Notes under the pieces: model-generated | Database searches by the model: none | What the model was told of the DNA's origin: nothing | The model's input: only the letters and a program-made list of their open reading frames with translations | Source: a virus | IMG/VR virus record: IMGVR_UViG_3300045988_177198 | Strand: one strand, 5' to 3' | DNA length: 64,000 nucleotides | Part shown: positions 6,430 through 33,435 of the stretch, one piece after another | Layout of the letters: every line of letters starts with the position of its first letter | Position numbering within the stretch: the stretch's first letter is position 1 | Position numbers and translations under genes: made by a program

Positions 6430-7299
6430 ATGACCAATCATAGCAAAGACCTCTACAAGTCGAATACATACAACTACACGCCGTCGGTTATGTCTAAGCT
6501 GAGTTTCCTGCCGCAGTCGAAACCGGAATCTCAGTCCATGAGAAAAATTAACGGAAACTCGTCAATCACAGTCTCGGCCTCCACCGGAGAATGGGCATAC
6601 GGAGCAGCCCCCAGAATGTTCCTCATCCACATCCGTTCTCTCATCAAGAACAGTAGCGACTGTGTGGACGCAGAGAATCATACCGTCTACTTGGACGACA
6701 CCTATCGTTCATTCTGCAAGAGCACTGGAATCCACTATTCAGGGTCCAGCAAGGAGACGGTGATGAACATGGTCAGGAATCTAGCGACAACCTCCATCGT
6801 CCTTGAAAACTGGTCCACTGGCGGATTCACAGCCCACTCTTTCTTCGTTGCCAACATAGTGTCACTCAACTACGACGATGACGGGGCGAAGAAGTCTTAC
6901 ATAAAGTTCTCCCCCGAGATGTGGGCACTGCTGACCGAGAACTGCGTTCCTCTCAACCCATCCATCGTTCGCCAGCTTCGCAACGATGCCCTCGCGTTGG
7001 ACGTATACCAGTGGCTCGCGTTCCGTGCCCATGCCATGCGCCATGAGACGCGCGTGACATGGGAAGCCTTGTTGATGCAGTTCAAGTACGACGGGTATCC
7101 GATGCGTGAATTCAGACGCAAGTTCAGAAGAGCGTTGGAGAAGATTCAGCTCGCATGGCCGGAATTGAAAGCCGAAATCACGGAAACCGGTGTCATAGTC
7201 CGTCCCAGTCTTCCTTCCATCCAGTCGGCTAACGATGATGCCGACACGGACGCGGGCGTGGCGGATGATGAAGAGCCGATGAACCCGTTCGTATCCTGA
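6430..7299 (+). CDS. plasmid replication initiator protein (iteron-type Rep)
   Basis: 289-aa ORF directly downstream of iterons plus AT-rich region; acidic C-terminus; organisation typical of theta/iteron Rep. Confidence 0.6.
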   Translation: MTNHSKDLYKSNTYNYTPSVMSKLSFLPQSKPESQSMRKINGNSSITVSASTGEWAYGAAPRMFLIHIRSLIKNSSDCVDAENHTVYLDDTYRSFCKSTGIHYSGSSKETVMNMVRNLATTSIVLENWSTGGFTAHSFFVANIVSLNYDDDGAKKSYIKFSPEMWALLTENCVPLNPSIVRQLRNDALALDVYQWLAFRAHAMRHETRVTWEALLMQFKYDGYPMREFRRKFRRALEKIQLAWPELKAEITETGVIVRPSLPSIQSANDDADTDAGVADDEEPMNPFVS

Positions 7300-7407: not shown

Positions 7408-7863
7408 CTAATCCTTCTGCTCATATTTGTCGATGAGCGTCTGGTCGAAGTGCCCCTGCTGGAAGCAGTAGTCCATCGCGGCATTCAACAATACAGCCTG
7501 TTTCGTCCCGTATTCGATGCTTTTCAATTTCCATGCCCGCCAGTTCTCGACGGTGACGTTGCTTCCGATTCTTTTCTCTTTCGGCGGCTGATGCGTTTCG
7601 GATGGTGCCGGTGTTTCAGGATGGGTTATGTCGGTGATGAGCCGTGCCCGACGGTCGGCTTCTTCCTCCGTGAGCGTTTGGGCATGCATGTCGGCGGACG
7701 TTTGGACTGACTGGTCTGACGGTTCCCGCGTTTCAGGAACGGCCTGTGTCGGTTCCTGCTCCGTGTTCGGTTCGCTAATGTTTTCCGGTGATTCCAATGG
7801 GCGCATGTCACGCTTGTCCTGCATTCCTGTTGCGAAAGCGTTGCGTTTGATGTTCTTGACCAT
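7408..7863 (-). CDS. hypothetical protein; possible small ParB-like partition partner
   Basis: 151-aa ORF immediately downstream of parA in the same operon; no motif support. Confidence 0.35.
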   Translation of the reverse strand: MVKNIKRNAFATGMQDKRDMRPLESPENISEPNTEQEPTQAVPETREPSDQSVQTSADMHAQTLTEEEADRRARLITDITHPETPAPSETHQPPKEKRIGSNVTVENWRAWKLKSIEYGTKQAVLLNAAMDYCFQQGHFDQTLIDKYEQKD

Positions 7864-7893: not shown

Positions 7894-8556
7894 TTATTCT
7901 TCCACCAGATTGATTTCAGACAGATAGTCGATGAGTTCCTGCACGACGCTGGAATATTCCTTGTTGTCGATTTCGGTTGTGCCGTACATGTTCTTGACGG
8001 CTTCACGTTCCGTGATGACGGTTTCGAACCGTGCGATGCCTTCCTCATCCAGTTCGCTGATGCTGTTCCGGGCGAGTTTCGTTCTCGGCTTCACGCGTGT
8101 CAACAGGACGATGCCGTTGCGTGCCGCCGCGTATGTGCGTCCCGCGTGGGTCAAATCGGATACGGATGGCTGGCATGGGATTATCACCACGTCGCCCGCG
8201 TTTATCGCCGCCTGCACCACTCCCGCGTCGGACGGTGGGGTGTCGATGATGACCCAGCCTGAATATTTTTCGCGGATGAGTTCCGGATTGTTCAATACGG
8301 CTTCGTTGGTTTGCACGACGGGGAAGCCGAGCGTGTATGGTTCCGCGTCCGGATTGTCCTGTCTGCGTCTGCGGTTTTCCTGTTCGACGTACATTTCCCA
8401 CATGGTCGCGCCGCCCGTGTTGTCGGAGTCCAAGACTGTGACTTGTTCCCCGCGTTTGTGCAATAGTTCGGCCAATGCCATTGATGTGGTTGTTTTTCCT
8501 GAACCGCCTTTGATGATTGCGACGGTGATGATGACCGTATGGTTTTTGACTCTCAT
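7894..8556 (-). CDS. parA: ParA/Soj-family partition ATPase
   Basis: Deviant Walker A 'IIKGGSGKTT', Walker A' and B motifs; start moved to internal Met (MRVKNH) at 8556 with AAAGGA RBS; track ORF extends to 8790. Confidence 0.8.
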   Translation of the reverse strand: MRVKNHTVIITVAIIKGGSGKTTTSMALAELLHKRGEQVTVLDSDNTGGATMWEMYVEQENRRRRQDNPDAEPYTLGFPVVQTNEAVLNNPELIREKYSGWVIIDTPPSDAGVVQAAINAGDVVIIPCQPSVSDLTHAGRTYAAARNGIVLLTRVKPRTKLARNSISELDEEGIARFETVITEREAVKNMYGTTEIDNKEYSSVVQELIDYLSEINLVEE

Positions 8557-8651
8557 GTTCTGGTTTCCTTTTTCTGCTTCCGGTGTGGACGGAATCATGG
8601 TGGGGGTATGTCTTTTTGTTTCGATGATAACAACGGCGAAAAGTCGGCACG

Positions 8652-8801
8652 CCGAACCAGAAAACCGTTCGGAGAAACATTCCAGTAAAACAGTTGAACG
8701 GCGTACAAGTTTACAGGCGGAACAGAAAAACAGAAAGCCGCGTCCGCGATGAAACGGATACGGCCTTCTTTCGTTTTTACCGCCGAACAAAAATCATTCG
8801 G
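8652..8801. promoter_or_regulatory. two CCGAAC-N7/9-(G/A)TTCGG palindromes upstream of parA (candidate par operator/centromere)
   Basis: ccgaaccagaaaaccgttcgg (~8652-8672) and ccgaacaaaaatcattcgg (~8783-8801) in the 237-bp parA upstream region. Confidence 0.3.
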
Positions 8802-14240: not shown

Positions 14241-16901
14241 CTAGTCATCATCGTCCATGTCACCATTGCGATAACCGTTATCGAAATCGTTCACATGAAC
14301 AAGGAATGTCGGTTGCAACTGTTCTTGGGTTCGAGTGCGAACAGCCGCCGCATAACGTGGAAGATTCATGACCGCGCCCGAACGCCAACCATCCTCACCG
14401 TCATTGTTTGTCAAACGTTTCGCCGTCATATCGGCAATACGCGGAATCGTCGTATTGTATGTGATGAACGTCGAATAGCCGATGAACGAATCCAACATCG
14501 CGTCGGACAACTGGGTCGGATACTGGGTGGCGAACACGAGAAGAAGACCGAACGAACGACCCTGCTCACGCAACGCGGGCATGATACCGTCATTGCCGTT
14601 AGCCAACAAGCTCAACTCGTCACACACGAGCATCGTCCACTTGCCAGCCTTATCCCAATCCTTGCAATGCGCGAACACCGTATTCCAGAAACGGTACATG
14701 AGCCAGCCGCCGAGAATCTTATCCATACGTTCCGGCAACGAATAACCATTATGAGGTGCGAGCACAATGTGATAATCGCCAGCATGGTCGAGAATGTTCG
14801 TCCAAGTCACTCTGCCACGACGTGCCGTGAACATGTGTTCGATGGGAAGGAACTGATTCACCTTGTTCAACGAGGCGTTCGTCTTGGCGAGAATGTCACG
14901 GTCGGAACGAACCGTATGACCAGCCGCGTCCGGACGGCCATACAATTGCTCGGCGGCACGGGCGGCATACGTCATCTCCTCGAACATGTAGCCACTCTTC
15001 AATTCCATACTCAACGCGCGGCACACATGACCCAACGCTTTCGCGGAACCGGCCTGACCGTCGGAACCGCATAATGCGACGACGGCCCATCCGATTGGAC
15101 TCAACTGCATTCGCAACTGTTCCGCACCCGGATACGATTGTTCGAGCTGATGGCAACGTTTCACAATCTCGCTTTCCCAATCCTTGTTCGCGGATTCGGG
15201 ATTATGCTTGCGTTCCTCCTGCACGTAACGGTCAACCGCCACGCCGATGGTCAACGCTTGGGTGATGATGTTCTGCGAGTCGTTCAGAATATCACCGTCA
15301 TCGAACGAGTAACGCATGGTCTTCGCCACGCTCGCCGCAGTCTCCATCGCATTATTCCCGTCCTTCATGCCGAGCATGTCCAAGCACACACTGTTCGGGT
15401 CGGCCAAATAGACGACGCGTTGCGGACTGGTGAAAACGTGACGTTTGCGATAACGTTCCAACACGTTAACACCGGTATCATCCTTCATCCAAAAATGGAT
15501 GATACGGGAGTCGCGCCCCCAGATTTTCGGACTGGTGGTCTCGCGTGCGCTGATGGCCCACTGGCTGATGCCATGGGTGAGCACGGTCTTACCGGAACCG
15601 GCCTCGCCGTTGATGGCGATACCGCCGAACAATTGCGACGGGTCAAGATAACAGTTACGTCCCGTATCATCCTTCCCAAGGAAGATGCCATCATGCGACA
15701 ATACTTCCGGAACGGGATGCAATTCCTGTTTCATCGCCACTCCCTGAGTGACCGGAGTGAACACGGAGCTTACGATAATCGGAGGAAGAATCAACGTGGT
15801 ACGTTGCGCACCATAAGCCGACACGCGCTCCTTATGCGTGCGCACGCCAAGACGGGTCTGATTATCGGACTCGTTCGCGCCACGGTCGTTCGCAATCGCA
15901 TAATATCTTCGTGGCGTTTGGAAAATGTCATCCCACAACGTCCAGTTCTTCCAACGGATGAACGCGAATACAAGAAGAGGAACGAAAAGAATCGGAATGA
16001 ATGTCGGGAGCGGAAGCAACCCCAACAGCAGGTAAAGCATGAGCGCCACCGCGCCACCGGCAATCTGAGGTCTTGGAATGTAAACGAACGGAATGCACGA
16101 CAACAGCATGAGGAACAGGAACACGACCAACGTCACAGCAAGCAACGGAAGCGCGATTCCGAAACCCCAAGCGGAATGGAACAATGGGAAAATCCCATCC
16201 ATCACGTATCCTCTTGCAAGACCGCACACACTCCAAATCACGGACAACACTTCCAACAGCATGGTGACGAACAGCAACCCGAATTTCGGACGGCTCGCAT
16301 GACTGGACATGTTGGATATGAGCGGGCAGATGATTTGACCAATCTTCTGCGCAAGCTGTCGGTTACGCGAAGCCTGACGGCAACCGAAACTCACACGGGC
16401 GCACATCGTGTTGGTCGAAGCGAGTTCGCTTGAATCCTCCACCGCATTGTATTCGTCGCTAATCCAATTGCGAATACGAATCTGCTCGAAGTATCCCTGA
16501 TTGCGAAGGGTGATGCTCACGTAACTGTCCGGCGGCATGACCTTCTCGATACTTGTACGAACACCGGAATAGTTCGTCCGCATTTTCTCCATGTTGCTTT
16601 TCGAGTTCAACCGGGCGCGGAATGGTACAAGAGGATGTGCCGCACTGTTCACGCCATCCGGCAACACCGGCCCGTCGTCGTCTTCGACCAATTTCGCATC
16701 GAATCCAGCCAACTGTCCGGCGTTGATGATTCCCTCGCCGTCGCCGTAAATGTATTCCTTGACCGGCTCCTCGCCCTTCTTGATGAGGAGAAGGGTGCAA
16801 CCATCCAGTTCGGCTGGAATGCTTTCCATTTTCGAACGTTGCTCGTCCGCGTCAAGCTGTTGCAATGTTCTGGTTATCTGATACCAGTTCGGATTACCCA
16901 T
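14241..16901 (-). CDS. T4SS P-loop ATPase (VirB4/TrsE-like or VirD4-type coupling protein) with internal membrane domain
   Basis: 886 aa; ~190-aa N-domain, then ~5 TM helices (aa ~200-330), Walker A 'GEAGSGKT', Walker B 'MLVCDELS', 'FATQYPTQL' motif. Confidence 0.7.
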   Translation of the reverse strand: MGNPNWYQITRTLQQLDADEQRSKMESIPAELDGCTLLLIKKGEEPVKEYIYGDGEGIINAGQLAGFDAKLVEDDDGPVLPDGVNSAAHPLVPFRARLNSKSNMEKMRTNYSGVRTSIEKVMPPDSYVSITLRNQGYFEQIRIRNWISDEYNAVEDSSELASTNTMCARVSFGCRQASRNRQLAQKIGQIICPLISNMSSHASRPKFGLLFVTMLLEVLSVIWSVCGLARGYVMDGIFPLFHSAWGFGIALPLLAVTLVVFLFLMLLSCIPFVYIPRPQIAGGAVALMLYLLLGLLPLPTFIPILFVPLLVFAFIRWKNWTLWDDIFQTPRRYYAIANDRGANESDNQTRLGVRTHKERVSAYGAQRTTLILPPIIVSSVFTPVTQGVAMKQELHPVPEVLSHDGIFLGKDDTGRNCYLDPSQLFGGIAINGEAGSGKTVLTHGISQWAISARETTSPKIWGRDSRIIHFWMKDDTGVNVLERYRKRHVFTSPQRVVYLADPNSVCLDMLGMKDGNNAMETAASVAKTMRYSFDDGDILNDSQNIITQALTIGVAVDRYVQEERKHNPESANKDWESEIVKRCHQLEQSYPGAEQLRMQLSPIGWAVVALCGSDGQAGSAKALGHVCRALSMELKSGYMFEEMTYAARAAEQLYGRPDAAGHTVRSDRDILAKTNASLNKVNQFLPIEHMFTARRGRVTWTNILDHAGDYHIVLAPHNGYSLPERMDKILGGWLMYRFWNTVFAHCKDWDKAGKWTMLVCDELSLLANGNDGIMPALREQGRSFGLLLVFATQYPTQLSDAMLDSFIGYSTFITYNTTIPRIADMTAKRLTNNDGEDGWRSGAVMNLPRYAAAVRTRTQEQLQPTFLVHVNDFDNGYRNGDMDDDD

Positions 16902-16927: not shown

Positions 16928-17404
16928 TTAATCATTCGTGCTCTGCTGATACAACTGCGCGTATGGAAAACCTTCCGGCTTCTGGAAAGTGGAAAGCTTC
17001 TCACGTAACGACAATTGGAGAAGCCATGTAGTCATCCGGACGGTTTTCTCCTTCGACTCCAAAGCCCAACCCAATGTCACGTAACCATCGTTCACACTCG
17101 AATCATCGTTGATGGTTTCACGCATGACGCGGATTGTTTTGTTCGCAATCCGCCGGGAAGTGTTGAACATTATCGAATCCAACTGCCAGAGTCGTATCTT
17201 CCGTAATGCGGGAACACGTTGCATGTTCGCCATCAGAAACGGAATGACCAAATGTCTACGTCCCGTCTCACATAATGTCTGAACCTGTTGCAAAGCCCGC
17301 GCACGTTCCAATCTTGCTACATCCAACGCGTCCTGCGTCTGTTGGAATGATTCCTCAGTGGAGACCATCGCAATCCTTTCCAATGAAACCGTAGAAACCG
17401 CCAC
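16928..17404 (-). CDS. hypothetical protein
   Basis: 158-aa ORF; overlaps upstream gene 3' end by 50 nt. Confidence 0.35.
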   Translation of the reverse strand: MAVSTVSLERIAMVSTEESFQQTQDALDVARLERARALQQVQTLCETGRRHLVIPFLMANMQRVPALRKIRLWQLDSIMFNTSRRIANKTIRVMRETINDDSSVNDGYVTLGWALESKEKTVRMTTWLLQLSLREKLSTFQKPEGFPYAQLYQQSTND

Positions 17405-18551
17405 GGTACGCTTCCGGCATCGTCCAACCGGAAACGTCCCAACCCCAATCCTTTTTGATGATGTCCCGCGTCACGTCCCAACCCCATTCGCTGACTTTGC
17501 GAACGTCACGAACCTGCGGAGTGTATTGCACCCACTCGTCGGAGAAAATGTTGCGCCGTGTTCCACTCATGTCCGTATATTCACCGAACCTGTCGGTCGG
17601 CATCCCATGCTCGAACCATTCATCCCAAACCGCGACTCCCATTCGTTGCGACACGGTCGGATTGCCCACGACCATTTCCGTCATGCCTTGCGTGCGTTGT
17701 ATCACCGCATTGAACGATTCGTAACCTTCGTTCGCCTTCGGTATCTGCAACCATACGCAGATGAGTCCGCGACGTTTCATCGGAGAGTAGGCGAGCATCT
17801 TCGCCCAGTTCTGCATCTTCTTATCCAATTCGCTGTTGGACGTTTGGATTTCGATACCCGCCAACACATTGTTCCGGCACAACGTCACCACATCGGTAGC
17901 GCAAGCCTTGCCAACCTTCGACTCGGCAACAGCCTGTGGGTCAACGCTACGGAATTTCCCCCAACCATCACCGGATGAAAATTTCACACGTGAATCGCGT
18001 GCCAACATCAATCCCGCGTGCGCCGCATAAGTGTTATGCCGAACATGGAAACGATTCCCCGCGTAATAGGAAACCGCCATCGTCTCACGCATCCACTTTT
18101 CCATCCCGTACAATTTCATCGCACGGTTGATAAGACGTGGACTGTTCGACGGTGAAAGCCAAACATGATTCACGGTCTGACCGTACAATCGTTCCGCCTG
18201 ACTGAAACCGACGTTGATGATTCCCAAACGGTTCATCGCACCATACAGGTTCGGTTCGTCACGTTCGAAAGCGGGAGCGCCTTTGATGGAAAGTCCCGCA
18301 CGTAGTTGGTCAACCGTGCATGTCTTCCACGTGAACAATGCTCCGAGGATACTCGAAACGAGTTCGCTGTTCGCTTTCACCATTGTCTCCGCGAACAGTT
18401 TGTTCGCAACGAACCACGGGTGGGTCTGCGCGAACAATCCGGGATGCTCCATCTCGAACATGTCGTTGCCTTTATACCAGTCGGCAATGCTTCCGGTCTT
18501 CCAAAGATTCTCGTCGTTCGGGTCGAAAAGAAAACGGTCATCGAATGTCAC
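17355..18551 (-). CDS. hypothetical protein (Trp-rich, soluble)
   Basis: 398-aa ORF, 4-nt overlap with upstream ATPase gene; no relaxase motif recognised. Confidence 0.5.
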   Translation of the reverse strand: MTFDDRFLFDPNDENLWKTGSIADWYKGNDMFEMEHPGLFAQTHPWFVANKLFAETMVKANSELVSSILGALFTWKTCTVDQLRAGLSIKGAPAFERDEPNLYGAMNRLGIINVGFSQAERLYGQTVNHVWLSPSNSPRLINRAMKLYGMEKWMRETMAVSYYAGNRFHVRHNTYAAHAGLMLARDSRVKFSSGDGWGKFRSVDPQAVAESKVGKACATDVVTLCRNNVLAGIEIQTSNSELDKKMQNWAKMLAYSPMKRRGLICVWLQIPKANEGYESFNAVIQRTQGMTEMVVGNPTVSQRMGVAVWDEWFEHGMPTDRFGEYTDMSGTRRNIFSDEWVQYTPQVRDVRKVSEWGWDVTRDIIKKDWGWDVSGWTMPEAYRGGFYGFIGKDCDGLH

Positions 18552-19762
18552 TTACGCCCACGACCTTTCTTTCCTTCACTGTTCTTAGCGTTCGGATTGA
18601 ATCTTTCCGGATTAAAACCACGGTCGGGCAAAGCCCAGTTAAGAATGTTCTCCCTAGCAAAAGCAAGACCGGGGTCATCCCATCTGACATCACCGTTGGC
18701 GATATGGTTGCTTGCCTCGACCGTCTGATATTCGGTTCCGAGAAACGTTCCGTATCTCGTATAGTCGAGTCGCCTGTAACCTTGCAATCCGACCGGAACA
18801 GTGTCCTTGATGCCGATGAGTTCCTTCGGAAGATGATGCTCAGCCAAGGCCGTCAGCAGATTCAACGCGTCTATCTGCGTCTGCCTTCCAGCCTTGACGA
18901 TAACCAGACAAGGGTCTCCCGATTGAATGTATGGAAGCAGTAAACCGTTGGCGATATTCTCCCTATCATCCAAATCGTCCGCGCTGATTCGGTCAAGGTC
19001 GAGCACGACGAAATCCCACAGTCGGCGTGCCGCTTGGATGTACTGACGGTATATCTGCCAGTCCACTCCGACGCCCGCTGGAGGTGCGAAACAGATATCG
19101 TATGGAACCCCAAGGTCACGTCCTCGATTGGCTCCAACCTGCACCTGCATGCCCGGTCGCCAGTCGGCTATCGTATGCAATGGCTTGTCCTGTCTCGGGT
19201 CAAAAAAACTACGTTGGCTGGACTGCCGGATGTTCCCGTCGATGAGTAGAACACGCAATCCGGCTTGCGACGCACGGTCTGCCAACTGTCGGCTGGACGT
19301 GGTCTTCCCCACTCCTCCGGTGTTGGATGTGATGGGTAGGAGAACCGCAGTCTCCTTCACTTTGTTTTGGAGGATATCGACTACGAGACGCTTGTCCGCA
19401 AGCTGGATTCCCCAATAAGTCCGTGCGAAATCAGCCACGCTCATGCGTAACATCTGTTCGCTCATGCCCATGGCTCCGACCGGTATCTGACCGGTGTTGC
19501 ACCAGTAGACCATGTATCCGGCGTTGGCTATCGGAAGCCAGTTTCCAGCCCTGTCGGTGAAGATGATTCCTTTGAACCCGGAGGGCACCGGATGTCTTAT
19601 CAGATAGTCGGCCTGTGCTTGAATATTGTCTGCGGCGGGCACCTGCCAACGCATGTTTCCGGCTCTCGTAAGGGCCTTTTTGATGGTTGTGAGTAGCCCT
19701 CCGGAGCCGATTATCAGGGAAATCGTTCGTTTTTCCAATAAGACCGCCTCCTGATGGGTCAT
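18548..19762 (-). CDS. ParA/MinD-superfamily ATPase with N-terminal extra domain (CpaE/TadZ-like architecture)
   Basis: Deviant Walker A 'ITSNTGGVGKTT' at aa ~145 preceded by ~130-aa domain; first gene of leftward operon. Confidence 0.6.
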   Translation of the reverse strand: MTHQEAVLLEKRTISLIIGSGGLLTTIKKALTRAGNMRWQVPAADNIQAQADYLIRHPVPSGFKGIIFTDRAGNWLPIANAGYMVYWCNTGQIPVGAMGMSEQMLRMSVADFARTYWGIQLADKRLVVDILQNKVKETAVLLPITSNTGGVGKTTSSRQLADRASQAGLRVLLIDGNIRQSSQRSFFDPRQDKPLHTIADWRPGMQVQVGANRGRDLGVPYDICFAPPAGVGVDWQIYRQYIQAARRLWDFVVLDLDRISADDLDDRENIANGLLLPYIQSGDPCLVIVKAGRQTQIDALNLLTALAEHHLPKELIGIKDTVPVGLQGYRRLDYTRYGTFLGTEYQTVEASNHIANGDVRWDDPGLAFARENILNWALPDRGFNPERFNPNAKNSEGKKGRGRK

Positions 19763-20699
19763 GTTCCGTTGTTTTCATCGGAACGTTTACGGTTTTGTCC
19801 GAGTTCTGGCATTTATAGTTTTTGATATTTAGTTTTTTGTTGGTTTTGCTGTTGCTTTTTTCATTGCATTGGCTGTTCCTGTATTGATGTTACCTTGTTC
19901 TGATTGTCGTTGACCTTGTTAGTGAGACTATTGACCTTTTCGCTGTTGTCGTTTTGTGCTGTGGTTGTTGTGTGCCGTCGTGTTGATACTGGTGTTCGGT
20001 TTGTCTTGTGATGGTGTGGCTTGTTGCTTTTCTTGTTTCTTGGGGCGTTTGGGTACTGTTGTTCTTCTGTCCTGTATGTCATATGGGTTGATATGTTGTT
20101 CTTTTGGTGGATGGTTGCGTTGCCTCTGTTGTTTTCATACGTTGTATTCCCGATTTAGGGGTAGACGTTTCTTCTTCTATTGTCCTTTTCTCTGTTGTTC
20201 CTTTCCTGATTATGTTGCTGAGTATTGTCCTGTTCTTCTGTTGCTTCTATTTGCTTAGGATGTCTTCTCTTATTTCTCTTATGTTCTTCTTTTTCTTTTT
20301 TTTCTTTTCTTTCTGGTTTTCTTGGTTCTTCTTTTTGATGTGATGGTGTTTGTTTTCTGATTTTTGGTGGGGAGTGTTTTCTATCTTTTTGTCTTTTTGT
20401 TTTTTGGTTTTTCTCTTTTCTTTTTTGAGTCTGCTATTCATGTTGACCTACCGGCGTGGACTGGATGGTTTTCATGGTTTTTCTGATAATGGTCAGGTGC
20501 TGTTCCTTTTTTCATATTTGTTGGGGACTCTTTTTGGTTCCGCTTTTCTGTTGGAACTACCGGCGCGGGCGGCGCGGGGAATTGTTTTTCCCGTTTTCCC
20601 CGTTTAGGGATGCCGTCGGGCGTTACACTCGTAAATTGAAAATACAGAACACCTCGTTCCGACTGTTAACAGCCTGTACGACCGGAGTGTTCGCTGGAT
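19763..20699. other. ~0.94-kb low-GC, A-depleted (G+T-rich top strand) non-coding spacer between divergent operons
   Basis: Visible composition shift; almost no A on + strand over long stretches; all six-frame ORFs are low-complexity artefacts. Confidence 0.5.
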
Positions 20700-21422
20700 A
20701 TGACGAAAGAAGGTATGATGCCAGACTTCACCAATTGGGGATTCAACAACAACCAGCAGTCGGAGCAGGACAATGGTTACGGTTCCGACAATTATGCTGA
20801 ACCGGAGCAGTCTTCTGTCGAGGAGTCGCAGACGGAATCCGATTCTCTTAATCAGGAGAGTTCGGAACCTGTCGCTGACGTGTCCGCACCGGCTGATGGT
20901 GAGGACATGAACGTGGACGCTGAGTCCACTGAAACCGAAGACAAGCCGAAGGGGAAAGGTAAGGGCCGTTCCAATCGCAAACCGCGTGAAAAGACCATGC
21001 CGCACATCGAGGAACAGTTCGGCAAGAAGCTGATTCCTCTTGTCAAATCGTTGGATGACGAGCGTGTGGTTTCTCTTGCCAAGGCGTTGACCGATACGAA
21101 GAAGAGCACTCCGGAAGCAGTGCTGGACGCATTGACCGAGCCGAAGAACCAACGTCGAATCTCCGAGTTCGCGTCCGCGTTGGAAGGGTTGGCTACAGCC
21201 GAGCCGGGCATGATTGCCGCAGAGGTGACGTTGGTGTTCGCGCAGGGCAAGGATATGACCAACCTGCTGTTCTCCGTGCTGAACGCGGTCGCGCCGGAGA
21301 AGAATTTCGGCCGTCCAGTTGACGACCAGTCTCCTGCCGGAATGCGTAAGAACCTGAGCAAGATTGTCGATAATTGGGGTGACGGTGTTGACCTTTCCGT
21401 TATCGATGAGCTGAAAATCTGA
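20700..21422 (+). CDS. hypothetical acidic protein
   Basis: 240 aa; N-terminal Glu/Ser/Asp-rich region then KGKGKGR basic patch; followed by strong terminator. Confidence 0.5.
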   Translation: MTKEGMMPDFTNWGFNNNQQSEQDNGYGSDNYAEPEQSSVEESQTESDSLNQESSEPVADVSAPADGEDMNVDAESTETEDKPKGKGKGRSNRKPREKTMPHIEEQFGKKLIPLVKSLDDERVVSLAKALTDTKKSTPEAVLDALTEPKNQRRISEFASALEGLATAEPGMIAAEVTLVFAQGKDMTNLLFSVLNAVAPEKNFGRPVDDQSPAGMRKNLSKIVDNWGDGVDLSVIDELKI

Positions 21423-21442
21423 GTTCCCATTCCGACATCATT

Positions 21443-21480
21443 GAGGGGAGTCGGCCTTACGGTCGGCTCCCCTCTTTTCA
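21443..21480. terminator. bidirectional rho-independent terminator
   Basis: gaggggagtcggcc-ttac-ggtcggctcccctc hairpin followed by TTTT; lies between convergent genes. Confidence 0.55.
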
Positions 21481-21488
21481 AGCTTGGA

Positions 21489-22253
21489 CTATTGTCTGCG
21501 ACGTAATCTCAAAGCGTCTTCGGACGAGTACACTCCGAACGGGCTGATGGTCACGCTGTATTTCGTTATACGATACGTCCACTCGTTCTGACTGTCGTTC
21601 AACTCCTTGAATCTATTTAGAAGATTCTGCTTGGAGAGGCTTTGCCTGCTTGCTGGAAGCAGTGATGGAAGGTCTGCCCGTTCGATGATGAGCCTATGGT
21701 CGTTCGGACAATACAATGCCGCCAATACGAGCAGGTCTATCGCTATGGCGCTACCCGCGTTGGGGTACAGACACTTCAACGGCATCTGCCGGACGTTCCT
21801 TGTCATCATTTTTACGAACGGTTCCGTGAACGTGATTTTCCGATGCTCGATAGTGAGACTGTCGGCGGTGATTTCGGTGTGTTCGACCGGCGTGACTTTG
21901 ACTCCGTCCGCTCCGGTGAACTGGATTGACGAGAGCATGAGAAGCTGGTTCCGGACGGTAGTGCGTCCGTCTCCTCCACTGTTCAACCCGCATTTGTTGG
22001 CGAGGAAGAAGAAGTCGTCACCGATGGTGAGCGTGCGGGTTTCCGCATCCCATTCGCGGCTTGGCGTGTTGATGAGAGTGGTGATGATTATGCTTAACAG
22101 TCTCGGTACTCTACCGGAGAAACTGTTCTTGGTTTTCGCACGATAGGGTGCGAACAGTGGATAGGATTCCGCGGTGAGATAGCCGATATCGTAGCCGAGT
22201 ATCGTATGATAGTCGGCTTTCAGGGTCTCCAGCCCATAGGTTCCTTCGTTCAT
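21489..22253 (-). CDS. hypothetical protein
   Basis: 254-aa ORF. Confidence 0.5.
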   Translation of the reverse strand: MNEGTYGLETLKADYHTILGYDIGYLTAESYPLFAPYRAKTKNSFSGRVPRLLSIIITTLINTPSREWDAETRTLTIGDDFFFLANKCGLNSGGDGRTTVRNQLLMLSSIQFTGADGVKVTPVEHTEITADSLTIEHRKITFTEPFVKMMTRNVRQMPLKCLYPNAGSAIAIDLLVLAALYCPNDHRLIIERADLPSLLPASRQSLSKQNLLNRFKELNDSQNEWTYRITKYSVTISPFGVYSSEDALRLRRRQ

Positions 22254-22628
22254 TGTGTCTCCTTATAAAAATGACGGGCGTGTGGTTCCGTCGATAACAC
22301 AATGATACCCCCAGTATTGTGAGGTCGGATACCAAAAGGTGCCGGTTGACAGCATCGTCCACCGGCACCCTTATAGGTTATAAGTCTTTCCTATCCGGCT
22401 TTAAACCGTTCCCATCCGTATCGGGTTTTTTATCCCTACCCACAGGTCTACGAAGTCCAGAACCGGATTGTCCGGCCACACGACGTTCCAATCGAAGCTG
22501 ATACCGAATCTTCTCCAAGGTCTTCGACGTGTCCGTGATGTTCCCTTTACGGGCTTCACGAATCCACAGTTGACAACCCCGGTCGAGCATGACGACATCG
22601 GATAGTTTCGGTTGCCTTCCGGAACGTT

Positions 22629-22895
22629 TCAGTGACTTCGCCGGTGTCTGGTTTTGGTGTTGCTCATCGTCGCACATTCCGCCCACCTTTCCTTTTCACT
22701 GGGGTGGGCGAGCTGGTGTTGCGCCCACTTTCTCGCTTGTTTCATAGCGGCTTTCTTGCCGCCGTTGAGAGTGTGGGCAGTACCGTTCGCAATGGGAGTG
22801 AAGAATCCTTCATCTTCCACTTCGGCGCTCCACAGATATGACATGAAACCGTTTCTGCGGACATTGATATCGAACTTGTATCCGTCACGGTTCAC
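22629..22895 (-). CDS. hypothetical small protein
   Basis: 88 aa, 4-nt overlap with upstream AAA ATPase gene. Confidence 0.3.
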   Translation of the reverse strand: MNRDGYKFDINVRRNGFMSYLWSAEVEDEGFFTPIANGTAHTLNGGKKAAMKQARKWAQHQLAHPSEKERWAECATMSNTKTRHRRSH

Positions 22896-23791
22896 TGGTT
22901 GGAAACCTCCATCTTCAGAGAGTTGAAAGCATTGACGAACAGGTCGGTCGGAATGGTTTCCGAACCGGAAATCAAAGTCTTACGGGACAGATTGTCCACG
23001 GTTTGGACAAGCAGGGCCGGACTAACGTCTTCTATGTCGATGTCGAGCGGTTGAACGTCGGCTTGGATGTTCAACTCCTTGAGTCGGCGCATGATGATGA
23101 GTCTTGAAGTCGCCTTGTCCGGTAGTGTCATATGAACCCGGACGTCGAACCTACGCCATGCGGCACGGTCTATAAGACTGCTCATGTTGGTGGCGCAGAC
23201 GAGAATGCAATCATCTGGTAGCGTGTCGATTTTCTGGAGTACGAGATTGGTGGCTCGACGCATTTCGGCAACGTCATGGGAGTTGTCGCGTCGGGCAAGA
23301 AGCATGTCGCATTCGTCTATGAACAGGAGCTTTCGTTCCACGTGTAGCCGGTCGAACACCAAGGCGATATTGGTTAACGTCTTACCGAGCTGACTGCTGA
23401 TAACACGGTCTGCACGAAGAATAACACCGTCCAGTCCAAGCCTCTCCGACAGGATGGAAGCAAAGGTGGTCTTGCCCGTACCGGGCGCTCCAGTGAGTAT
23501 GATTCGATTACGGGGAGCGAGATTATGCGCTGTCAGAACATCCAGTTTCTTATACTCGGCAACCAGTCCGTCCAATAGTTCCCGCACGGTCTTATCCCAC
23601 ACAGGCTTATGAGTACCGTCCGGTGGGAGCAACGGTTCGGTCAACCCGTCAACCGGTACCAGACTCGCATTGACAGCCAGTCCCTTCTCGCGTTCCGACT
23701 CCGCCAGCAGTTCGATTTGCTGTGCAAATTTCAAATGGTCTCCGTTGCATGCAGCTCTGACCAGTCGAAGCATTTCCGTGCTGTTTAACAT
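22892..23791 (-). CDS. AAA-family ATPase
   Basis: Walker A 'GAPGTGKT', Walker B 'LLFIDECD'. Confidence 0.7.
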   Translation of the reverse strand: MLNSTEMLRLVRAACNGDHLKFAQQIELLAESEREKGLAVNASLVPVDGLTEPLLPPDGTHKPVWDKTVRELLDGLVAEYKKLDVLTAHNLAPRNRIILTGAPGTGKTTFASILSERLGLDGVILRADRVISSQLGKTLTNIALVFDRLHVERKLLFIDECDMLLARRDNSHDVAEMRRATNLVLQKIDTLPDDCILVCATNMSSLIDRAAWRRFDVRVHMTLPDKATSRLIIMRRLKELNIQADVQPLDIDIEDVSPALLVQTVDNLSRKTLISGSETIPTDLFVNAFNSLKMEVSNQ

Positions 23792-28239: not shown

Positions 28240-28608
28240 ATGGTCGAAAAACCGAACACATCCCCGGCGAAGCTTCTGACCGCAGACGAGGCTTTGGCCT
28301 TGGGAAGACGACCGGAAGTCGTCAACGTCTTGAAAAACAAGCACGGATGGTGGGTAATCTTCACCACCCAATTCCAAGACGAAGTGACCCTCCGATATCT
28401 GCAAGGGGAACGTCCCTCGGAGATATTCCGCAGTCACAATCTCGGACCGGAAGTCCTCGGATACAAGCGCATAGAACGTTGCATATACCGGTGGGTCAAC
28501 CATCCCAGCAAAACCCGTATCAGACGTTGGCAAGCGGAACACCGCCTATATGAGACGTTGAACAACAAGCAAACCAATCCTGACAAGAAGGAGAACGGCG
28601 ACAAGTGA
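28240..28608 (+). CDS. hypothetical protein
   Basis: Internal Met (MVEKPN) with AAAGGA RBS; track ORF starts at 28138. Confidence 0.4.
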   Translation: MVEKPNTSPAKLLTADEALALGRRPEVVNVLKNKHGWWVIFTTQFQDEVTLRYLQGERPSEIFRSHNLGPEVLGYKRIERCIYRWVNHPSKTRIRRWQAEHRLYETLNNKQTNPDKKENGDK

Positions 28609-29945
28609 GCGTCCCCACACCAATCCACAAGGACATGGCCGAACAAGTGTTGTTGGGGGCCATGCTTCAAGACGCGGAAACGTTGGACAAGGTCATCAGC
28701 CAACTTTCCGAAGAGGACTTCTACCAGCCGACCAACCAGACCATCTTCCATAATATAAAGGAACTGGCCGCAGACAATAACCGTGTGGACGCGCAAATGC
28801 TGTCCTCGCACATGATGGACAACGGACAGTTGGAACAGGTTGGCGGCATCGACTACATCGCCCAGCTTGTCGGCTCCGCGCCCACGTCGAACAACAGTGA
28901 CTATTTCATCAAGCAGATTCGTGACGCGGCCATCCTCCGCCACATCAACGTGGTCGGACAGCAGTTGCAACAGATGAGCAACGTATCCGACGCGTCAGCC
29001 GAAGACGTGCTCAGCAAATCGTTGGAGGCCGCGTTCTCGTTGGAGGATTCAAGCCGTTCCGAAGACGACGAGTTGAAGACCGCATACCGCCTGTCCGACG
29101 AAATGCTCCAACAGTTGGATGAAATGTCACAGAATCCGAACGAGTTCGGAACACCCACCGGCTTCCGTGACATCGACGCGTTGACGCACGGATTGCAAGC
29201 CGGACAAATGGTCATAGTCGCGGGCCGTCCGGGCATGGGCAAGAGTACTCTCGGCATGGATTTCGCGCGTAACGCCGCACTGCACAAGGGTCTGCCGACT
29301 GTGATTTTCAGTCTGGAAATGGGCGGTCACGAACTCATGCAACGCATGTTCGCAGCCGAAACAGGCATCCGTCTCGCATCGTTCCAACATCCCGAGAATC
29401 TGAACTCGAATGATTGGAACAAACTCAACGCGCTTTGCCATCAGGTCGAGAAGGCACCATTGTGGGTTGATGATTCCGCCATCATCAACATGAGCACCAT
29501 CCGTGCGAAATGCCGTGCTCTCAGCCGCAAGGTCAACGGGTTGAAGCTTATCGTCATCGATTATCTGCAACTCATGTCCTCCGGTAAAACCGTCGAGAAC
29601 CGTCAGCAGGAAGTATCGAACTTCTCCCGCCAATGCAAAATGCTCGCCAAGGAACTGCAATGCCCCGTGGTCGTGCTCTCCCAGTTGAACCGTAATGCGG
29701 AACAACGCGCCGACAAAAGACCGGAACTGTCCGACCTGCGAGAGTCCGGTTCCATCGAACAGGACGCCGACATGGTGTTCCTCGTGCATCGTCCCGAATA
29801 CTACGACCGTGAGGAACGTCCGGGCGAAGCCGACGTGATTCTCGCCAAACACCGTAACGGGCCTACCGAAACGTTCAATCTCGCGTTCATGGGCGAATGC
29901 TCCAAATTCGCGGACATGGCCGCAGACTTCGAAAACGAGTTCTGA
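28605..29945 (+). CDS. dnaB: replicative DNA helicase DnaB
   Basis: 446 aa; N-terminal DnaB helical domain, Walker A 'GRPGMGKST', 'IDYLQLM', 'SQLNR' and 'NGPTE' motifs. Confidence 0.9.
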   Translation: MSVPTPIHKDMAEQVLLGAMLQDAETLDKVISQLSEEDFYQPTNQTIFHNIKELAADNNRVDAQMLSSHMMDNGQLEQVGGIDYIAQLVGSAPTSNNSDYFIKQIRDAAILRHINVVGQQLQQMSNVSDASAEDVLSKSLEAAFSLEDSSRSEDDELKTAYRLSDEMLQQLDEMSQNPNEFGTPTGFRDIDALTHGLQAGQMVIVAGRPGMGKSTLGMDFARNAALHKGLPTVIFSLEMGGHELMQRMFAAETGIRLASFQHPENLNSNDWNKLNALCHQVEKAPLWVDDSAIINMSTIRAKCRALSRKVNGLKLIVIDYLQLMSSGKTVENRQQEVSNFSRQCKMLAKELQCPVVVLSQLNRNAEQRADKRPELSDLRESGSIEQDADMVFLVHRPEYYDREERPGEADVILAKHRNGPTETFNLAFMGECSKFADMAADFENEF

Positions 29946-29995: not shown

Positions 29996-31393
29996 ATGCC
30001 AACAACATTGATAATCGTCGCGGCAGTGGCGATACTCATCATCCTGCTCGCAACCGCAAGCTACAAGGTCTGCCCCGCCGACCGGGTAATGGTCATCACC
30101 GGGCCGGGCGGACGACGCTTCGTCTCCGGCGGAAGCGCGTTCATCATACCCTTCATCATGCGCGTGGACTGGCTCTCCCTCGGAGCGGTGCAGTCGCTCC
30201 TGAGAACCGACACGCCGATTCCGACGAAGGACGCAATCCTCATCGACGTGAACGCCGTCGCCAACTTCCAAATCGCATCCGAGACCATGACCGTGGACGA
30301 GAACGGTAAACAGGTGAAGGCATTAGAAAACGCCGCCAAGAACTATCTGAACCAGTCCAAGGAGCGAATGGAGAAGGACGTGACACAAGTGCTCCTAGGC
30401 AAGCTGCGCGAGGTCATCGGCAGAACCGAGTTGAAGGCACTCATGGAGAACAGGGACACGTTCGCCGCGACCGTGGCCGAATCCGCCCGCGTGGACATGG
30501 AACGGCTTGGCCTTCAATTGACCACGTTCAACATTCAAGACTTCACCGACCGTCAGAACGTCATCGCCAACATGGGCGCTGAAATGGCCGCCGAAATCAG
30601 CCGGAATGCGAAGCTCGCGTCCATCAACGCGGAACAGGATGTGGCCGTCCGTCAGAACCAGCTCGACCTGAAACGAGCCGAACTCCAATCCATCTCCGAC
30701 AAGGCGCAGGCCGAGGCCGACGCGGTGAAGGACATCACCGCCGCCGAACAGTCCAAAACTCTCAAAGTCAAGGAGCAGGAGGCGGAAATCGCCGCCGCCG
30801 AAAAGAAGGCAGTCCTCGAACAGAAGAACGCCGAAATCGAAGAGCAGAAACTGAACGCGACCATCCGCAAGAAGGCCGACGCCGACAGATACGCAGCCGA
30901 ACAACAGGCCGACGCACAAGTGTACACGACCCGCAAGCATGCGGATGCGGAACTGTATCTACGTCAGCAGGAGGCTCAGGCCACCCAATCCACCGCCGAC
31001 GCGGACGCACACGCGACCGAAGTCAAAGGCAAGGCCGAGGGTTCCGCCGCACAGGCCAAGGGTGTAGGCGAAGCCGAGGCAATCCGCGCCCAAGGCCGAG
31101 CCTACAATGCGATGAACAACACGTACATCCTCGCCCAACAGTACATTCAGATTCTCCCCGACATGGTTCGGGCCGCCGCCGAACCGCTCACCAAGGTTGA
31201 CCACATCACCATGTATGGCGACGGAAACAGCACGAAGCTCGTGGGCGACACGGTGAACAGTGTGAGCCAGTTGAGTGAGGGATTGTCTCAATCCTTGGGC
31301 ATCGATTTGAAAGCTTTGCTGAACAGTATGGTGGCCGGTCATGCCGCCGGTTCCGCACTAGGTGGGAAAGGTTCCGAACAGTCCGGAAACTAA
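29996..31393 (+). CDS. flotillin-like SPFH/band-7 protein
   Basis: 465 aa; N-terminal TM, SPFH core, long Ala/Glu/Gln-rich coiled-coil. Confidence 0.8.
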   Translation: MPTTLIIVAAVAILIILLATASYKVCPADRVMVITGPGGRRFVSGGSAFIIPFIMRVDWLSLGAVQSLLRTDTPIPTKDAILIDVNAVANFQIASETMTVDENGKQVKALENAAKNYLNQSKERMEKDVTQVLLGKLREVIGRTELKALMENRDTFAATVAESARVDMERLGLQLTTFNIQDFTDRQNVIANMGAEMAAEISRNAKLASINAEQDVAVRQNQLDLKRAELQSISDKAQAEADAVKDITAAEQSKTLKVKEQEAEIAAAEKKAVLEQKNAEIEEQKLNATIRKKADADRYAAEQQADAQVYTTRKHADAELYLRQQEAQATQSTADADAHATEVKGKAEGSAAQAKGVGEAEAIRAQGRAYNAMNNTYILAQQYIQILPDMVRAAAEPLTKVDHITMYGDGNSTKLVGDTVNSVSQLSEGLSQSLGIDLKALLNSMVAGHAAGSALGGKGSEQSGN

Positions 31394-33300: not shown

Positions 33301-33435
33301 GATTGGAAGATTGGAATACTGCCGTATGAGAAAACTTTTCTGACCGTTTGACGGTTGGAAAAGCATGAAATGTTCCGCTTGGCGTGTCGGGAACCCAAAT
33401 ATCGACACGCCACCTTTTAGATTCTTTATAACCGC

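Follow-up and report, generated by a model that had tools for sequence, protein, structure and literature searches.

An adenine-depleted, strand-polarised spacer upstream of a putative DNA-processing operon in a pMP7017-like plasmid, a possible origin of transfer

The window, as we call the whole 64-kb stretch of DNA that was analysed, is part of a ~220-kb relative, probably from Bifidobacterium adolescentis, of the conjugative megaplasmid pMP7017. This relative was found in hundreds of contigs, all eight places among those listed being human-gut or similar assemblies; PLSDB gave no near-identical DNA match. To our knowledge, no large conjugative plasmids other than those of the pMP7017 type have been characterised in Bifidobacterium. 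MOB-suite types the pMP7017-type plasmids as non-mobilizable, although the literature describes pMP7017 as conjugative, and neither an oriT nor a relaxase is described in the pMP7017 literature searched. The spacer studied here separates a leftward operon from a divergent rightward gene. The pMP7017 supplement tabulates neither promoters nor TSSs, and the genes on either side of the spacer do not appear in it.

The first gene of the leftward operon (18548-19762, minus strand) encodes a ParA/MinD-like ATPase of 404 aa with a ~135-aa N-terminal extension. Its Pfam matches, CbiA (4.9e-07) and AAA_31, cover the Walker A region only (residues 144-179), and the protein shares 57% identity with its counterparts from pMP7017 and the B. 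longum plasmid, in conserved synteny. The true partition ParA of the window is a different gene (7894-8790), where the best VirC1 Pfam hit of the window also falls. The fourth gene of the operon (14241-16901, minus strand) encodes an 886-aa homologue of type IV coupling proteins (T4CP), recognised by BLASTP at 26% identity over 485 aa (E 2e-35) to a pACHL01 protein annotated as [quoted passage not shown], which itself has a weak TraG-D_C hit. The 886-aa protein gave no direct hit in Pfam or NCBIfam. The gene order of this operon is kept in all fetched relatives.

Between these two genes, a 398-aa protein (17355-18551, minus strand) is predicted to combine an N-terminal winged-helix DNA-binding domain with a PD-(D/E)xK restriction-endonuclease catalytic fold. 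Winged helix plus PD-(D/E)xK is the architecture of MOBC relaxases (PMC12857230), and from its fold we consider the protein a candidate MOBC-like relaxase. It has no sequence hit in Pfam, NCBIfam or PDB and no match to any relaxase profile; sequence searches of the proteins flanking the spacer against PDB also gave no hits. Residues D220, E234, Q236 and K245 are invariant in its alignment. A preliminary description of this DNA had called the genes on the left transfer genes, which agrees with the ParA-like ATPase, the candidate relaxase (by fold) and the coupling-protein homologue.

On the right side, the divergent gene (20715-21422, plus strand) encodes a product of 234/235 aa whose N-terminus is acidic and of low complexity and whose C-terminal domain is conserved, and has no family hit in Pfam or NCBIfam. 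Limits of 19763 and 20699 had been proposed for the spacer. The left one holds, while the right one has to be moved to about 20714, for a spacer of 0.95 kb, because the rightward gene more likely starts at 20715/20718, preceded by a GAAGG ribosome-binding site, and a 234-aa product is given in public gene calls. The probable promoter of this gene is marked by a -10-like TACACT (20624-20629, plus strand; read from the motif). A TAnnnT hexamer occurs on the plus strand 20-58 nt to the right of the GC-rich repeats: TACACT in the window and L012, TAGATT in L011, TAGAGT in pMP7017, TAGACT in L013, TAATCT in L016 and TACAGT in B. longum. The window does not contain the 34-bp promoter motif described for pMP7017 (PMC10832533).

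The spacer had been reported as A-poor, low in GC and T-rich on the plus strand, and composition and skew computed per strand bear this out. Base counts for the plus strand at 19763-20699 are A 10.6%, C 16.9%, G 24.2% and T 48.3%, compared with A 24.1% and T 23.0% in the whole window. The low-complexity tract itself, which has no strand assignment, spans 19800-20540 (plus strand A 8.9%, T 52.9%, G 23.3%, C 14.8%); its core at 19820-20440 has A 8.1% and T 54.6%, and the sub-core at 20180-20440 has A 6.5% and T 61.3%. AT skew ranges from -0.50 to -0.79 across 19700-20600 and GC is 0.33-0.45 in the spacer against about 0.53, with normal composition in the final ~100 bp (20600-20699). This is not a chance fluctuation. 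The lowest A content among all 300- or 600-nt windows of the 64 kb (7.3-7.5%, starts at 19828-19832) lies in the spacer, and the depletion is kept in 14 lineages. The tract is also the least stable 400-600-bp duplex of the window. According to the ORF list, with part of the base-poor stretches checked singly, the spacer is the sole non-coding A-poor stretch of such kind in the 64 kb, the remaining ones being under long ORFs, as at 30528-31270 within an SPFH/flotillin-like gene. The homologous tract of pMP7017 (52.7-53.4 kb) is likewise the only one of its kind in the whole 190-kb plasmid. Evasion of AT-binding silencers through few TpA steps was considered and rejected, TpA being undepleted (24 in 621 nt versus 25 in a 600-nt control region).

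The tract is flanked by two conserved islands, on the operon side a -10-like box and on the far side a distal element that closes with direct repeats of GC-rich 9-mers. Between the first of them and the operon, a conserved leader (19763-19823, minus strand) abuts the start codon of the ParA-like gene and contains the palindrome GTTCCG-N10-CGGAAC (19763-19784), which adjoins the ATG and is found in lineage L011 and every window-like lineage. Only 3 of the first 61 leader positions differ from L011, while the other spacer sequence is 45% identical overall and the ParA-like protein 78%. The proximal box (19863-19898, minus strand; operon-sense GGTAACATCA) was recognised by eye in the alignments and has a -10-like TAACAT at 19892->19887. 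This hexamer is TAACAT in the window, L018, L019 and L021, TATCAT in L011, L012 and L023, TAATAT in pMP7017 and B. longum and TAATCT in L015 and L016, and the sequence around it cannot be aligned between distant lineages. We regard it as the probable promoter of the operon, a nic-type site being the alternative. The consensus promoter scan did not call this box, since it has no -35 element.

At the other end, two copies of ctaccggcg(c/t)gg had been noticed earlier. They are present at 20448-20459 and 20557-20568 and show that 109 bp of the distal module are duplicated in tandem (20448-20556, no strand assigned). Alignment of co-circulating variants revealed that this duplication is polymorphic in the population: L001, L002, L003 and L007 lack exactly the segment separating the two CTACCGGCG copies, and L011 aligns to one copy of the module. 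A 38-nt direct repeat (74% identity, 109-nt spacing) was detected in it. Wherever the module is duplicated, the GC repeats are kept in one copy and decayed in the other, which in the window is copy 1 (CTACCGGCGTGGACTGG). The GC-rich direct repeats so noticed belong to the best-conserved element of the spacer. This distal element (20529-20579, no strand assigned), defined by repeat search and comparison of lineages, consists of TTTTTGGTTCCGCTTTTC, the inverted repeat GGTTCC-N11-GGAAC (20536-20557), CTACC and two tandem 9-mers CGGCGCGGG with 100% identity (20561-20578, inside a GC run at 20560-20579). Within the 64 kb, the sequence GGCGCGGG is confined to two copies in the distal element.

In most lineages a related module, ...GTYCCGCT...ACCGGCGCGG(G)n, is found at the equivalent place, and a [GC]>=9 run or repeats occupy the distal position in 12 of 14 lineages, the other two having no clear GC run. 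The inverted repeat abutting the GC repeats is restricted to 4-5 of 13 lineages, with shuffle probabilities of 0.01-0.11 each, and a compensatory inverted repeat was therefore rejected as a general feature. Likeness of the distal element to the pMP7017 CRISPR I-E repeat (CTACC...GGCGCGGGGA) was also discarded, as its score of 20 compares with 21-23 at unrelated sites of the window. A scan of genome contigs with the ParA alignment found nothing. Matches of the GC-rich 20-mer in genome contigs were chance matches in GC-rich genomes only, and two labelled as Bifidobacterium were unrelated coding DNA.

Conservation in related plasmids was a check proposed in the preliminary description, and it turned out positive for the A-poor tract. 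In 14 lineages, with ParA-like identity down to 45%, the position of the spacer, its polarity and its A-depletion are all kept, and no lineage has lost the tract. Of 11 lineages scanned in 200-nt steps of sequence for their minimum A content, 9 reach 1-6.5% and the other two 9.5-10%. Spacer sequences cannot be aligned between distant lineages, their tracts vary from ~200 to ~840 nt, and no sequence motif common to all of them was found. Two variants with ~99% identity in most flanking genes differ in the spacer by 3.85% plus 9 indel events, a substitution level about 3.5 times that of most flanking genes. Since the depletion persists in all 14 lineages while the spacers of near-identical variants diverge in this way, it is the composition of the tract that is maintained and not its sequence. 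In every lineage but L014, a homologue of the divergent gene adjoins the spacer; L014 has an additional gene, followed by a terminator-like hairpin of its own, inserted between the GC repeats and the divergent gene, which indicates that tract and repeats travel with the transfer operon.

Fast change of this kind could also be expected of neutral low-complexity DNA that grows and shrinks by replication slippage of T-rich oligomers and is skewed only by descent, with function confined to the two islands. The indels, mostly 1-bp changes in T runs, agree with such a history, as do the 6-7-nt oligomer periodicity of several lineages (z 15.9 in L016 and 6.3 in L011), the raised substitution level, the variable length and the missing common motif. 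On the other hand, A-depletion outlasts the alignability of the sequence, whereas strand-symmetric point mutation should restore A ~ T, as we infer from Chargaff's second parity rule. Sites with A are mutable, given that A takes part in 12 of the 32 differences that separate the two variants. The tract is lost in no lineage, and AT-rich intergenic regions elsewhere on the plasmid are strand-symmetric (AT skew of -0.05 to -0.17 in the window versus -0.71 in the tract). Neutrality of the tract is quite unlikely.

The ORFs of the spacer had been taken for artefacts and the spacer for non-coding, a view that the variants corroborate. Two variants with 96-99% identity differ by nine indel events, mostly 1-bp T-run changes, including one 7-bp T-run deletion and one 3-bp gap, besides the 109-bp duplication. 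The 1-bp and 7-bp indels break every frame, and the spacer is therefore non-coding. The ORF list contains no ORF of more than 100 aa within the spacer and no reading frame is shared across lineages, since the longest ORF of each lineage lies in a different frame or strand and has a different length, reaching 59-247 aa on the sense strand. A low-complexity protein, Lys/Asn/Thr/Gln-rich from the minus strand or Cys/Phe/Leu-rich from the plus strand, is what an annotated 91-aa CDS inside the pMP7017 tract and the 64-95-aa genes called there in some public assemblies would suggest; scarce stops leave open frames of 50-250 codons on both strands. With only four start codons on the sense strand and those frame-breaking indels, we find a protein gene hardly credible.

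Folding predictions suggest that both strands of the tract are nearly free of secondary structure. As single-stranded DNA, the predicted energy is -11 kcal/mol over 741 nt compared with -123 for a neighbouring stretch of equal length, and the minimum free energy (MFE) has a z-score of +0.9 against its own shuffles. For the operon-sense RNA, MFE per nt is 0 to -0.08 over ~650 nt against a background of -0.27. Known sso and ssi elements are strongly folded. A single-strand origin, one of the functions suggested beforehand, is consequently unlikely for a tract that is almost unfolded. In 621 nt of the sense strand there are 2 TAnnnT motifs and 4 start codons, where 19 and 29.5 would be expected in strand-symmetric DNA of the same GC. 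The idea that both strands are devoid of promoter hexamers was only half true, since the plus strand has 11 TAnnnT motifs, below the strand-symmetric expectation (19) and above the window average (4.4).

These properties also fit the main rival explanation, in which the tract is the ~850-nt 5' leader of the transfer operon, transcribed from a promoter to the right of ~20580. The product would be an untranslated RNA without structure, rich in A and C and poor in U. Such a leader would act after initiation, for example through Rho-dependent attenuation or altered RNA stability, and a long unstructured CA-rich minus-strand RNA, as previously proposed, is possible. The polarity is uniform in 14 of 14 Bifidobacterium lineages, always with a T-poor sense strand, and both the weak predicted folding of the sense RNA and its shortage of start codons and TAnnnT motifs fit an untranslated transcript. 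In L014, where the tract stays with the operon, a TATAGT hexamer lies between the upstream terminator-like hairpin and the repeats. However, the conserved -10-like box (TAACAT/TATCAT/TAATAT) stands at the downstream end of the tract, so that the simplest promoter assignment leaves the tract untranscribed, and neither the promoter scan nor reading of the sequences revealed a consistent sense promoter upstream of it across lineages. The sense strand does not have consistently more C than G, as Rho loading would favour, and Rfam 15 gave no match at E <= 1 on either strand of 18500-22500. Long untranslated leader RNAs, structured ones, are present in Gram-positive conjugation operons such as that of pLS20, with antitermination. 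The likeness is in the long non-coding stretch that leads from a regulatory region to a large transfer operon and ends at its first gene, but the sequence here is predicted to be nearly structure-free and transcription through the tract is hypothetical. On balance, the leader RNA seems somewhat unlikely.

Within the tract sequence, the top enriched 6-mers are CCTGTT and GTTTTC, and TTCCTGTTTTC is about four-fold enriched, always on one strand (22 at <=1 mismatch versus about 5.6 expected). Together with the ParA-like gene directly downstream, they might indicate a binding platform for this ATPase or an adaptor, formed by a loose array of short sites in the same orientation that would position the plasmid at the transfer apparatus. 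ParA-like ATPases are known at transfer origins, as VirC1 with overdrive in Ti plasmids and StbB/StbA with the stbDR repeats in R388, and both situations share with ours a ParA/MinD-type ATPase gene by a presumed transfer origin and an adjoining T/G-rich cis region. Yet TTCCTGTTTTC is irregularly spaced, absent in 3 lineages and represented by only 2 loose copies in the window. The Ti overdrive core TGTTTGTT is not enriched over composition, and no common period, as in a centromere- or iteron-like regular array, was found among the lineages tested, which differs from VirC1 and StbA. Curved DNA from phased A-tracts was also rejected, given z values of -1.0 to +0.5 for the 10.5-bp period in 11 of 11 lineages tested, and no helical phasing supports the platform. 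We consider it very unlikely.

An oriT or nic region had been suggested for the spacer, a reasonable reading because it adjoins transfer genes, here the ParA-like, winged-helix plus PD-(D/E)xK (relaxase by fold) and T4CP genes that lie downstream. We suggest that the spacer may be the oriT and promoter region of the plasmid, with a hairpin-free and easily melted tract selected for composition, and give this reading, made from sequence features, a probability of roughly 40%. The spacer would be a cis-acting control region placed before the DNA-processing operon of a pMP7017-family conjugative megaplasmid. It would comprise the proximal -10-like box and leader driving the operon, a 0.65-0.75-kb tract with all A:T pairs pointing one way, and the distal element that ends in GC-rich 9-mer direct repeats beside the promoter of the divergent gene. 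Plasmid proteins would bind one or both islands and nick there; accessory proteins, the candidate relaxase through its winged-helix domain, or both, could do so. The boxes at 19863-19898 and 20529-20579 are no more than candidates for the nic site, for which this plasmid family has no consensus. The tract, as the least stable duplex of the region and selected for composition rather than sequence, could offer an unobstructed zone for unwinding and loading, or form the end of the strand that is transferred. Because one strand is without A and the other without T, unwound strands could not form hairpins, and the same base depletion would leave few palindromes and few sense-strand promoter hexamers and start codons. 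We infer the oriT function from position and anatomy, and with it protein binding, nicking and a role of the tract in unwinding or transfer.

One tract in the window and one in pMP7017 would be the expected look of a single-copy cis site. The MOBC relaxase TraX has a direct-repeat binding site 70-120 bp from nic (PMC12857230), which the GC-rich direct repeats unique in the window resemble in kind; that one copy keeps these repeats wherever the module is duplicated also speaks for this reading. As in the MOBC oriT of pAD1 (oriT2/TraX), a non-coding region lies beside a winged-helix plus PD-(D/E)xK gene, and short direct repeats are a probable protein-binding site apart from other conserved sequence (PMC12857230). 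Unlike in that system, the 398-aa protein is outside the relaxase profiles and assigned by fold only, and the spacer has GC-rich 9-mers in 2-3 copies where pAD1 oriT2 has five repeats. Against an oriT, the inverted repeat occurs in just 4-5 of 13 lineages, two lineages have no clear GC run, and the strict polarity in all Bifidobacterium lineages suits an RNA equally well. The oriT regions known to us are of a few hundred bp and none is depleted of a single base; we know of no oriT with a 0.65-kb tract of this kind, which makes the tract unprecedented in such a role.

One strand is T-rich in the DNA unwinding elements (DUEs) of replication origins, among them the oriC 13-mers and plasmid iteron origins. 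Like the tract, they are AT-rich, least-stable, strand-asymmetric duplexes next to a GC-rich, repeated protein-binding sequence, but DUEs have tens of bp and the tract 650. The iteron region beside the RepA_C gene of the window has an AT-rich segment that is strand-symmetric. The replication origin of pMP7017 was mapped at ~118 kb (PMC8313286), away from the spacer homologue at 52.7-53.4 kb.

The analysis singles out a short region that can be put to the test and a candidate relaxase. Should both be confirmed, the movement of pMP7017-type plasmids would be explained and bifidobacterial genetic tools would gain an oriT cassette. The tract further offers a clear example of selection that acts on base composition and strand polarity but not on sequence, unusual for bacterial non-coding DNA, and it would be more interesting if this were true upstream of homologous modules in soil actinobacterial plasmids too. 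Upstream of the homologous T4CP-nuclease pair in Micrococcales plasmids, base-depleted tracts were found in either polarity, which fits a DNA-level property better than a sense-strand RNA. The longer ones have a polarity opposite to that of Bifidobacterium, a point against the leader RNA, and the GC-rich ones have 65-75% GC, for which the argument of an easily melted oriT fails. Long non-coding tracts nearly devoid of one base on one strand could form a distinct class of selected cis-elements that act single-stranded before the T4CP/PD-(D/E)xK modules of actinobacterial megaplasmids, in Bifidobacterium and possibly in Pseudarthrobacter and Curtobacterium, a reading that as a whole we hold to be unlikely. 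They might be hairpin-free leading or trailing segments of the transferred strand, for relaxases that do not pilot DNA covalently, or else a U-free RNA. In pACHL01 and pS16, a T-poor sense segment lies directly upstream of the T4CP gene, an arrangement that also favours the leader RNA.

The spacer between the leftward transfer operon and the divergent rightward gene (19763-20699) contains 10.6% A, 16.9% C, 24.2% G and 48.3% T on the + strand, against 24.1% A and 23.0% T in the whole window. In its core (19820-20440), T reaches 54.6% and A falls to 8.1%. With an AT skew of -0.50 to -0.79 over 19700-20600 and a GC content of 0.33-0.45 (about 0.53 in the window), the near-absence of adenine and the lower GC noted in the preliminary description are borne out, as are two copies of ctaccggcg(c/t)gg, located at 20448 and 20557. 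The A-poor stretch proposed there is real, but 20715 or 20718 is a likelier start for the rightward gene than 20700, and the final ~100 bp of the interval have an ordinary base composition. The lowest A content of all 300- and 600-nt windows in the 64 kb falls inside the spacer. Judging from the ORF lists, the remaining base-poor stretches appear to sit beneath long ORFs, such as 30528-31270 within an SPFH/flotillin-like gene (29996-31393). Other AT-rich intergenic regions are strand-symmetric, with AT skews of -0.05 to -0.17 compared with -0.71 in the spacer.

The claim that the spacer is non-coding was also upheld, since it has no ORF longer than 100 aa, accumulates indels that the adjoining genes lack, and has different open frames in different lineages. 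Two co-circulating variants of the region, present in public assemblies, show 32 substitutions and 9 indel events across the spacer. The indels are largely 1-bp changes in T runs, the rest being a 7-bp T-run deletion, a 3-bp gap and a 109-bp indel; the adjoining genes show zero indels. The longest open frame varies among lineages in strand, frame and length, and an Rfam search with both strands of the spacer region returned no match. In the Bifidobacterium megaplasmid pMP7017, a 91-aa hypothetical CDS (B7017_RS00305; 53034-53309, or 5351-5626 of our locus L009) is contained entirely in the A-depleted tract, on its A-poor strand, and is probably a spurious gene call. Calls of this kind, 64-95 aa long, have also been made for the window's lineage in some metagenome assemblies.

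We gathered 14 lineages whose ParA-like proteins are 45-100% identical to that of the window. In all of them the ParA-like gene is preceded by a spacer of 511-1380 bp, depleted of A on the strand antisense to the operon, so the proposed check for conservation in related plasmids gave a long A-depleted spacer of the same polarity in 14/14. Of 11 lineages scanned in 200-nt windows, nine have a minimum A content of 1-6.5% and the other two (L014 and L017) one of 9.5-10%; the three lineages fetched later have 100-nt windows with 2-4% A. Across all 190 kb of pMP7017, no non-coding tract other than the homologous spacer is this depleted; the remaining depleted stretches are inside surface-protein and lipoprotein genes.

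Distant lineages could not be aligned through the tract. Even between the near-identical variants, the spacer diverges by 3.85%, compared with ~1% for most flanking genes, which indicates that its primary sequence is close to unconstrained. The exceptions are the coupling-protein gene (14241-16901; 4.85%) and an AAA-ATPase gene (22892-23791; 10.9%, with a 57-column gap), where the divergence suggests recombination or diversifying patches. A-depletion persists where divergence has wiped out all alignable sequence, and strand-symmetric mutation should, by Chargaff's second parity rule, have made A equal to T. Either selection therefore maintains the composition, or slippage of T-rich units keeps regenerating it; the 6-7-nt oligomer periodicity in the tracts of some lineages is a mark of slippage. 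A 10.5-bp phasing of T tracts was looked for and is absent.

Three parts of the spacer are conserved. The 60 nt beside the ParA-like start codon differ at only 3 of 61 positions from a lineage with a 78%-identical ParA-like protein, and contain the palindrome GTTCCG-N10-CGGAAC, which abuts the ATG. A conserved box marks the end of the tract nearest the operon and, in the window, lies 125-130 nt upstream of the ATG. Read from alignments and sequences, it is GGTA(A/T)(C/T)ATCA in the operon sense, and its -10-like hexamer (TAACAT, TATCAT, TAATAT or TAATCT) always fits TAnnnT. The distal element (...TTTTTG-R-GTYCCGCT-NTTC...GGAAC-YACCGGCGCGG...) ends in two or three GC-rich 9-mers, being two copies of CGGCGCGGG at 20561-20578 in the window; GGCGCGGG is found nowhere else in the 64 kb. 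The divergent gene probably has its promoter at a + strand TAnnnT hexamer to the right of these repeats. In the window's lineage, the distal module is duplicated over 109 bp, with the GC repeats kept in one copy and decayed in the other; in L018 and L021 the kept and decayed copies are swapped. L014 has an additional gene, with a terminator-like hairpin, separating the divergent gene from the repeats, so tract and repeats belong with the transfer operon. The tracts are enriched about four-fold in a same-strand motif, TTCCTGTTTTC (operon-sense GAAAACAGGAA), with 22 matches at ≤1 mismatch against about 5.6 expected. It recurs in the spacers of L011, L015, L018, L012, L023 and others, and window-like lineages as well as L011 also have it directly right of the GC repeats, but it is missing from three lineages and is not universal.

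Our best candidate for the region that holds the oriT and the promoter of the transfer operon is this spacer. We base this on its position, its uniqueness on each plasmid, its conserved element with repeats and the fact that neither an oriT nor a relaxase has been described. The two conserved islands (the proximal box and the distal element) would be the specific sites of binding, nicking and transcription initiation, and the intervening tract would be under selection for AT-richness and uniform A:T polarity. Such a composition would let the duplex open easily while its strands could not fold back; palindromes would be rare, as would promoter hexamers and start codons on the sense strand. The tract is the least stable 400-600-bp duplex of the window, and its predicted folding energy as single-stranded DNA is -11 kcal/mol over 741 nt, against -123 for a neighboring stretch of equal length. 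Between 19820 and 20440, TAnnnT hexamers number 2 and start codons 4 on the sense strand, where 19 and 29.5 are expected for strand-symmetric DNA of the same GC content. The operon-sense RNA is essentially unstructured (MFE per nt of 0 to -0.08, background -0.27); in that of the + strand, G-U pairs preserve some structure. The main alternative, transcription of the tract from its distal end as a long U-poor leader RNA, accounts for the strict polarity, but the -10-like box sits downstream of the tract and we found no consistent sense promoter at the distal end.

Two Micrococcales plasmids also speak against a leader. Upstream of a homologous T4CP-nuclease pair, pACHL01 (1020-2100) and the Curtobacterium plasmid pS16 (2000-3290) have unannotated regions of 1.5-1.9 kb with an A-depleted tract (1-10% A over 650-900 nt, 65-75% GC), followed by a T-depleted segment of 250-300 nt adjoining the gene. 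The polarity of these A-depleted tracts relative to the coupling-protein gene is opposite to that in Bifidobacterium, an observation from two incompletely annotated plasmids whose tracts may be coding. Nothing like the base-depleted tracts was found in a Glaciihabitans plasmid (L026). The high GC of the Micrococcales tracts weakens the easily melted part of our own explanation. An oriT and control region with an unprecedented compositional spacer is the most economical view.

The leftward operon starts with a ParA/MinD-like ATPase with an N-terminal extension of ~135 aa (18548-19762, -), followed by a 398-aa protein without family annotation (17355-18551, -), a 158-aa protein and an 886-aa protein (14241-16901, -) homologous to a pACHL01 protein annotated as type IV coupling protein (26% identity, E 2e-35). 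The 398-aa protein has a predicted winged helix and PD-(D/E)xK nuclease fold, the architecture of MOBC relaxases such as TraX of pAD1, which binds five direct repeats located 70-120 bp from nic (PMC12857230). In Micrococcales megaplasmids, the coupling-protein gene is followed by one for a distant homolog of the 398-aa protein. From this fold and neighborhood, we take the 398-aa protein as a candidate relaxase. It is conserved beside coupling-protein genes in Bifidobacterium and Micrococcales megaplasmids typed as non-mobilizable, whose missing relaxase it may be; MOB-suite types pMP7017 and all its B. longum relatives in this way. The literature searched on pMP7017 mentions neither an oriT nor a relaxase, and the tract and any oriT for this plasmid family are undescribed there. 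A ~0.95-kb fragment and a candidate relaxase are thus named for a widespread gut plasmid family and are worth a bench test.

Identical copies of the ParA-like protein occur on hundreds of contigs; among the eight places listed, these measure 207-228 kb, and the window is part of an element of about that size. A protein from Bifidobacterium adolescentis falls in the same 90% cluster as the ParA-like protein. The nearest annotated relatives, the B. breve conjugative megaplasmid pMP7017 and B. longum plasmids, share the gene order at 57% amino-acid identity. Such megaplasmids have been reported for B. longum and B. breve only (pMP7017 literature), and, judging by the 57% identity of backbone proteins, the element seems to be a separate, common branch. 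Mapping has placed the replication origin of pMP7017 at ~118 kb and its terminus at ~37 kb (PMC8313286); the plasmid's homologous spacer lies at 52.65-53.36 kb, which rules out a vegetative origin.

An iteron-type origin-like region is found at 5860-6240, upstream of a RepA_C gene (6430-7299), with four tandem 22-bp repeats, GTGTCGAAAGTGCCCACTTTCC, at ~6088-6190, preceded by strand-symmetric AT-rich DNA (5860-6060; GC 27%, AT skew -0.17). A 15-mer at 6218-6232, TTTTGGTTCCGCTTT, recurs exactly within the spacer's distal element (20532-20546). Five GTTCC-N8-14-GGAAC palindromes occur in the window (0.8 expected; five reached in 0 of 100 shuffles) and could be operators of one regulator: two bracket the spacer (19763-19784 and 20537-20557) and the others are at 7722-7740, 33372-33394 and 43622-43643, one being directly upstream of sortase/pilin genes. 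The region 33436-39731 encodes a sortase and then a 1796-aa surface protein with RCC1-like, SpaA and SdrD B-like domains. A reverse-transcriptase gene (RVT_1; 41682-42911) lies further on. Further cargo of the window includes genes for a GmrSD-like nuclease (3121-4146), a plasmid DnaB helicase (28605-29945) and the SPFH/flotillin-like protein (29996-31393).
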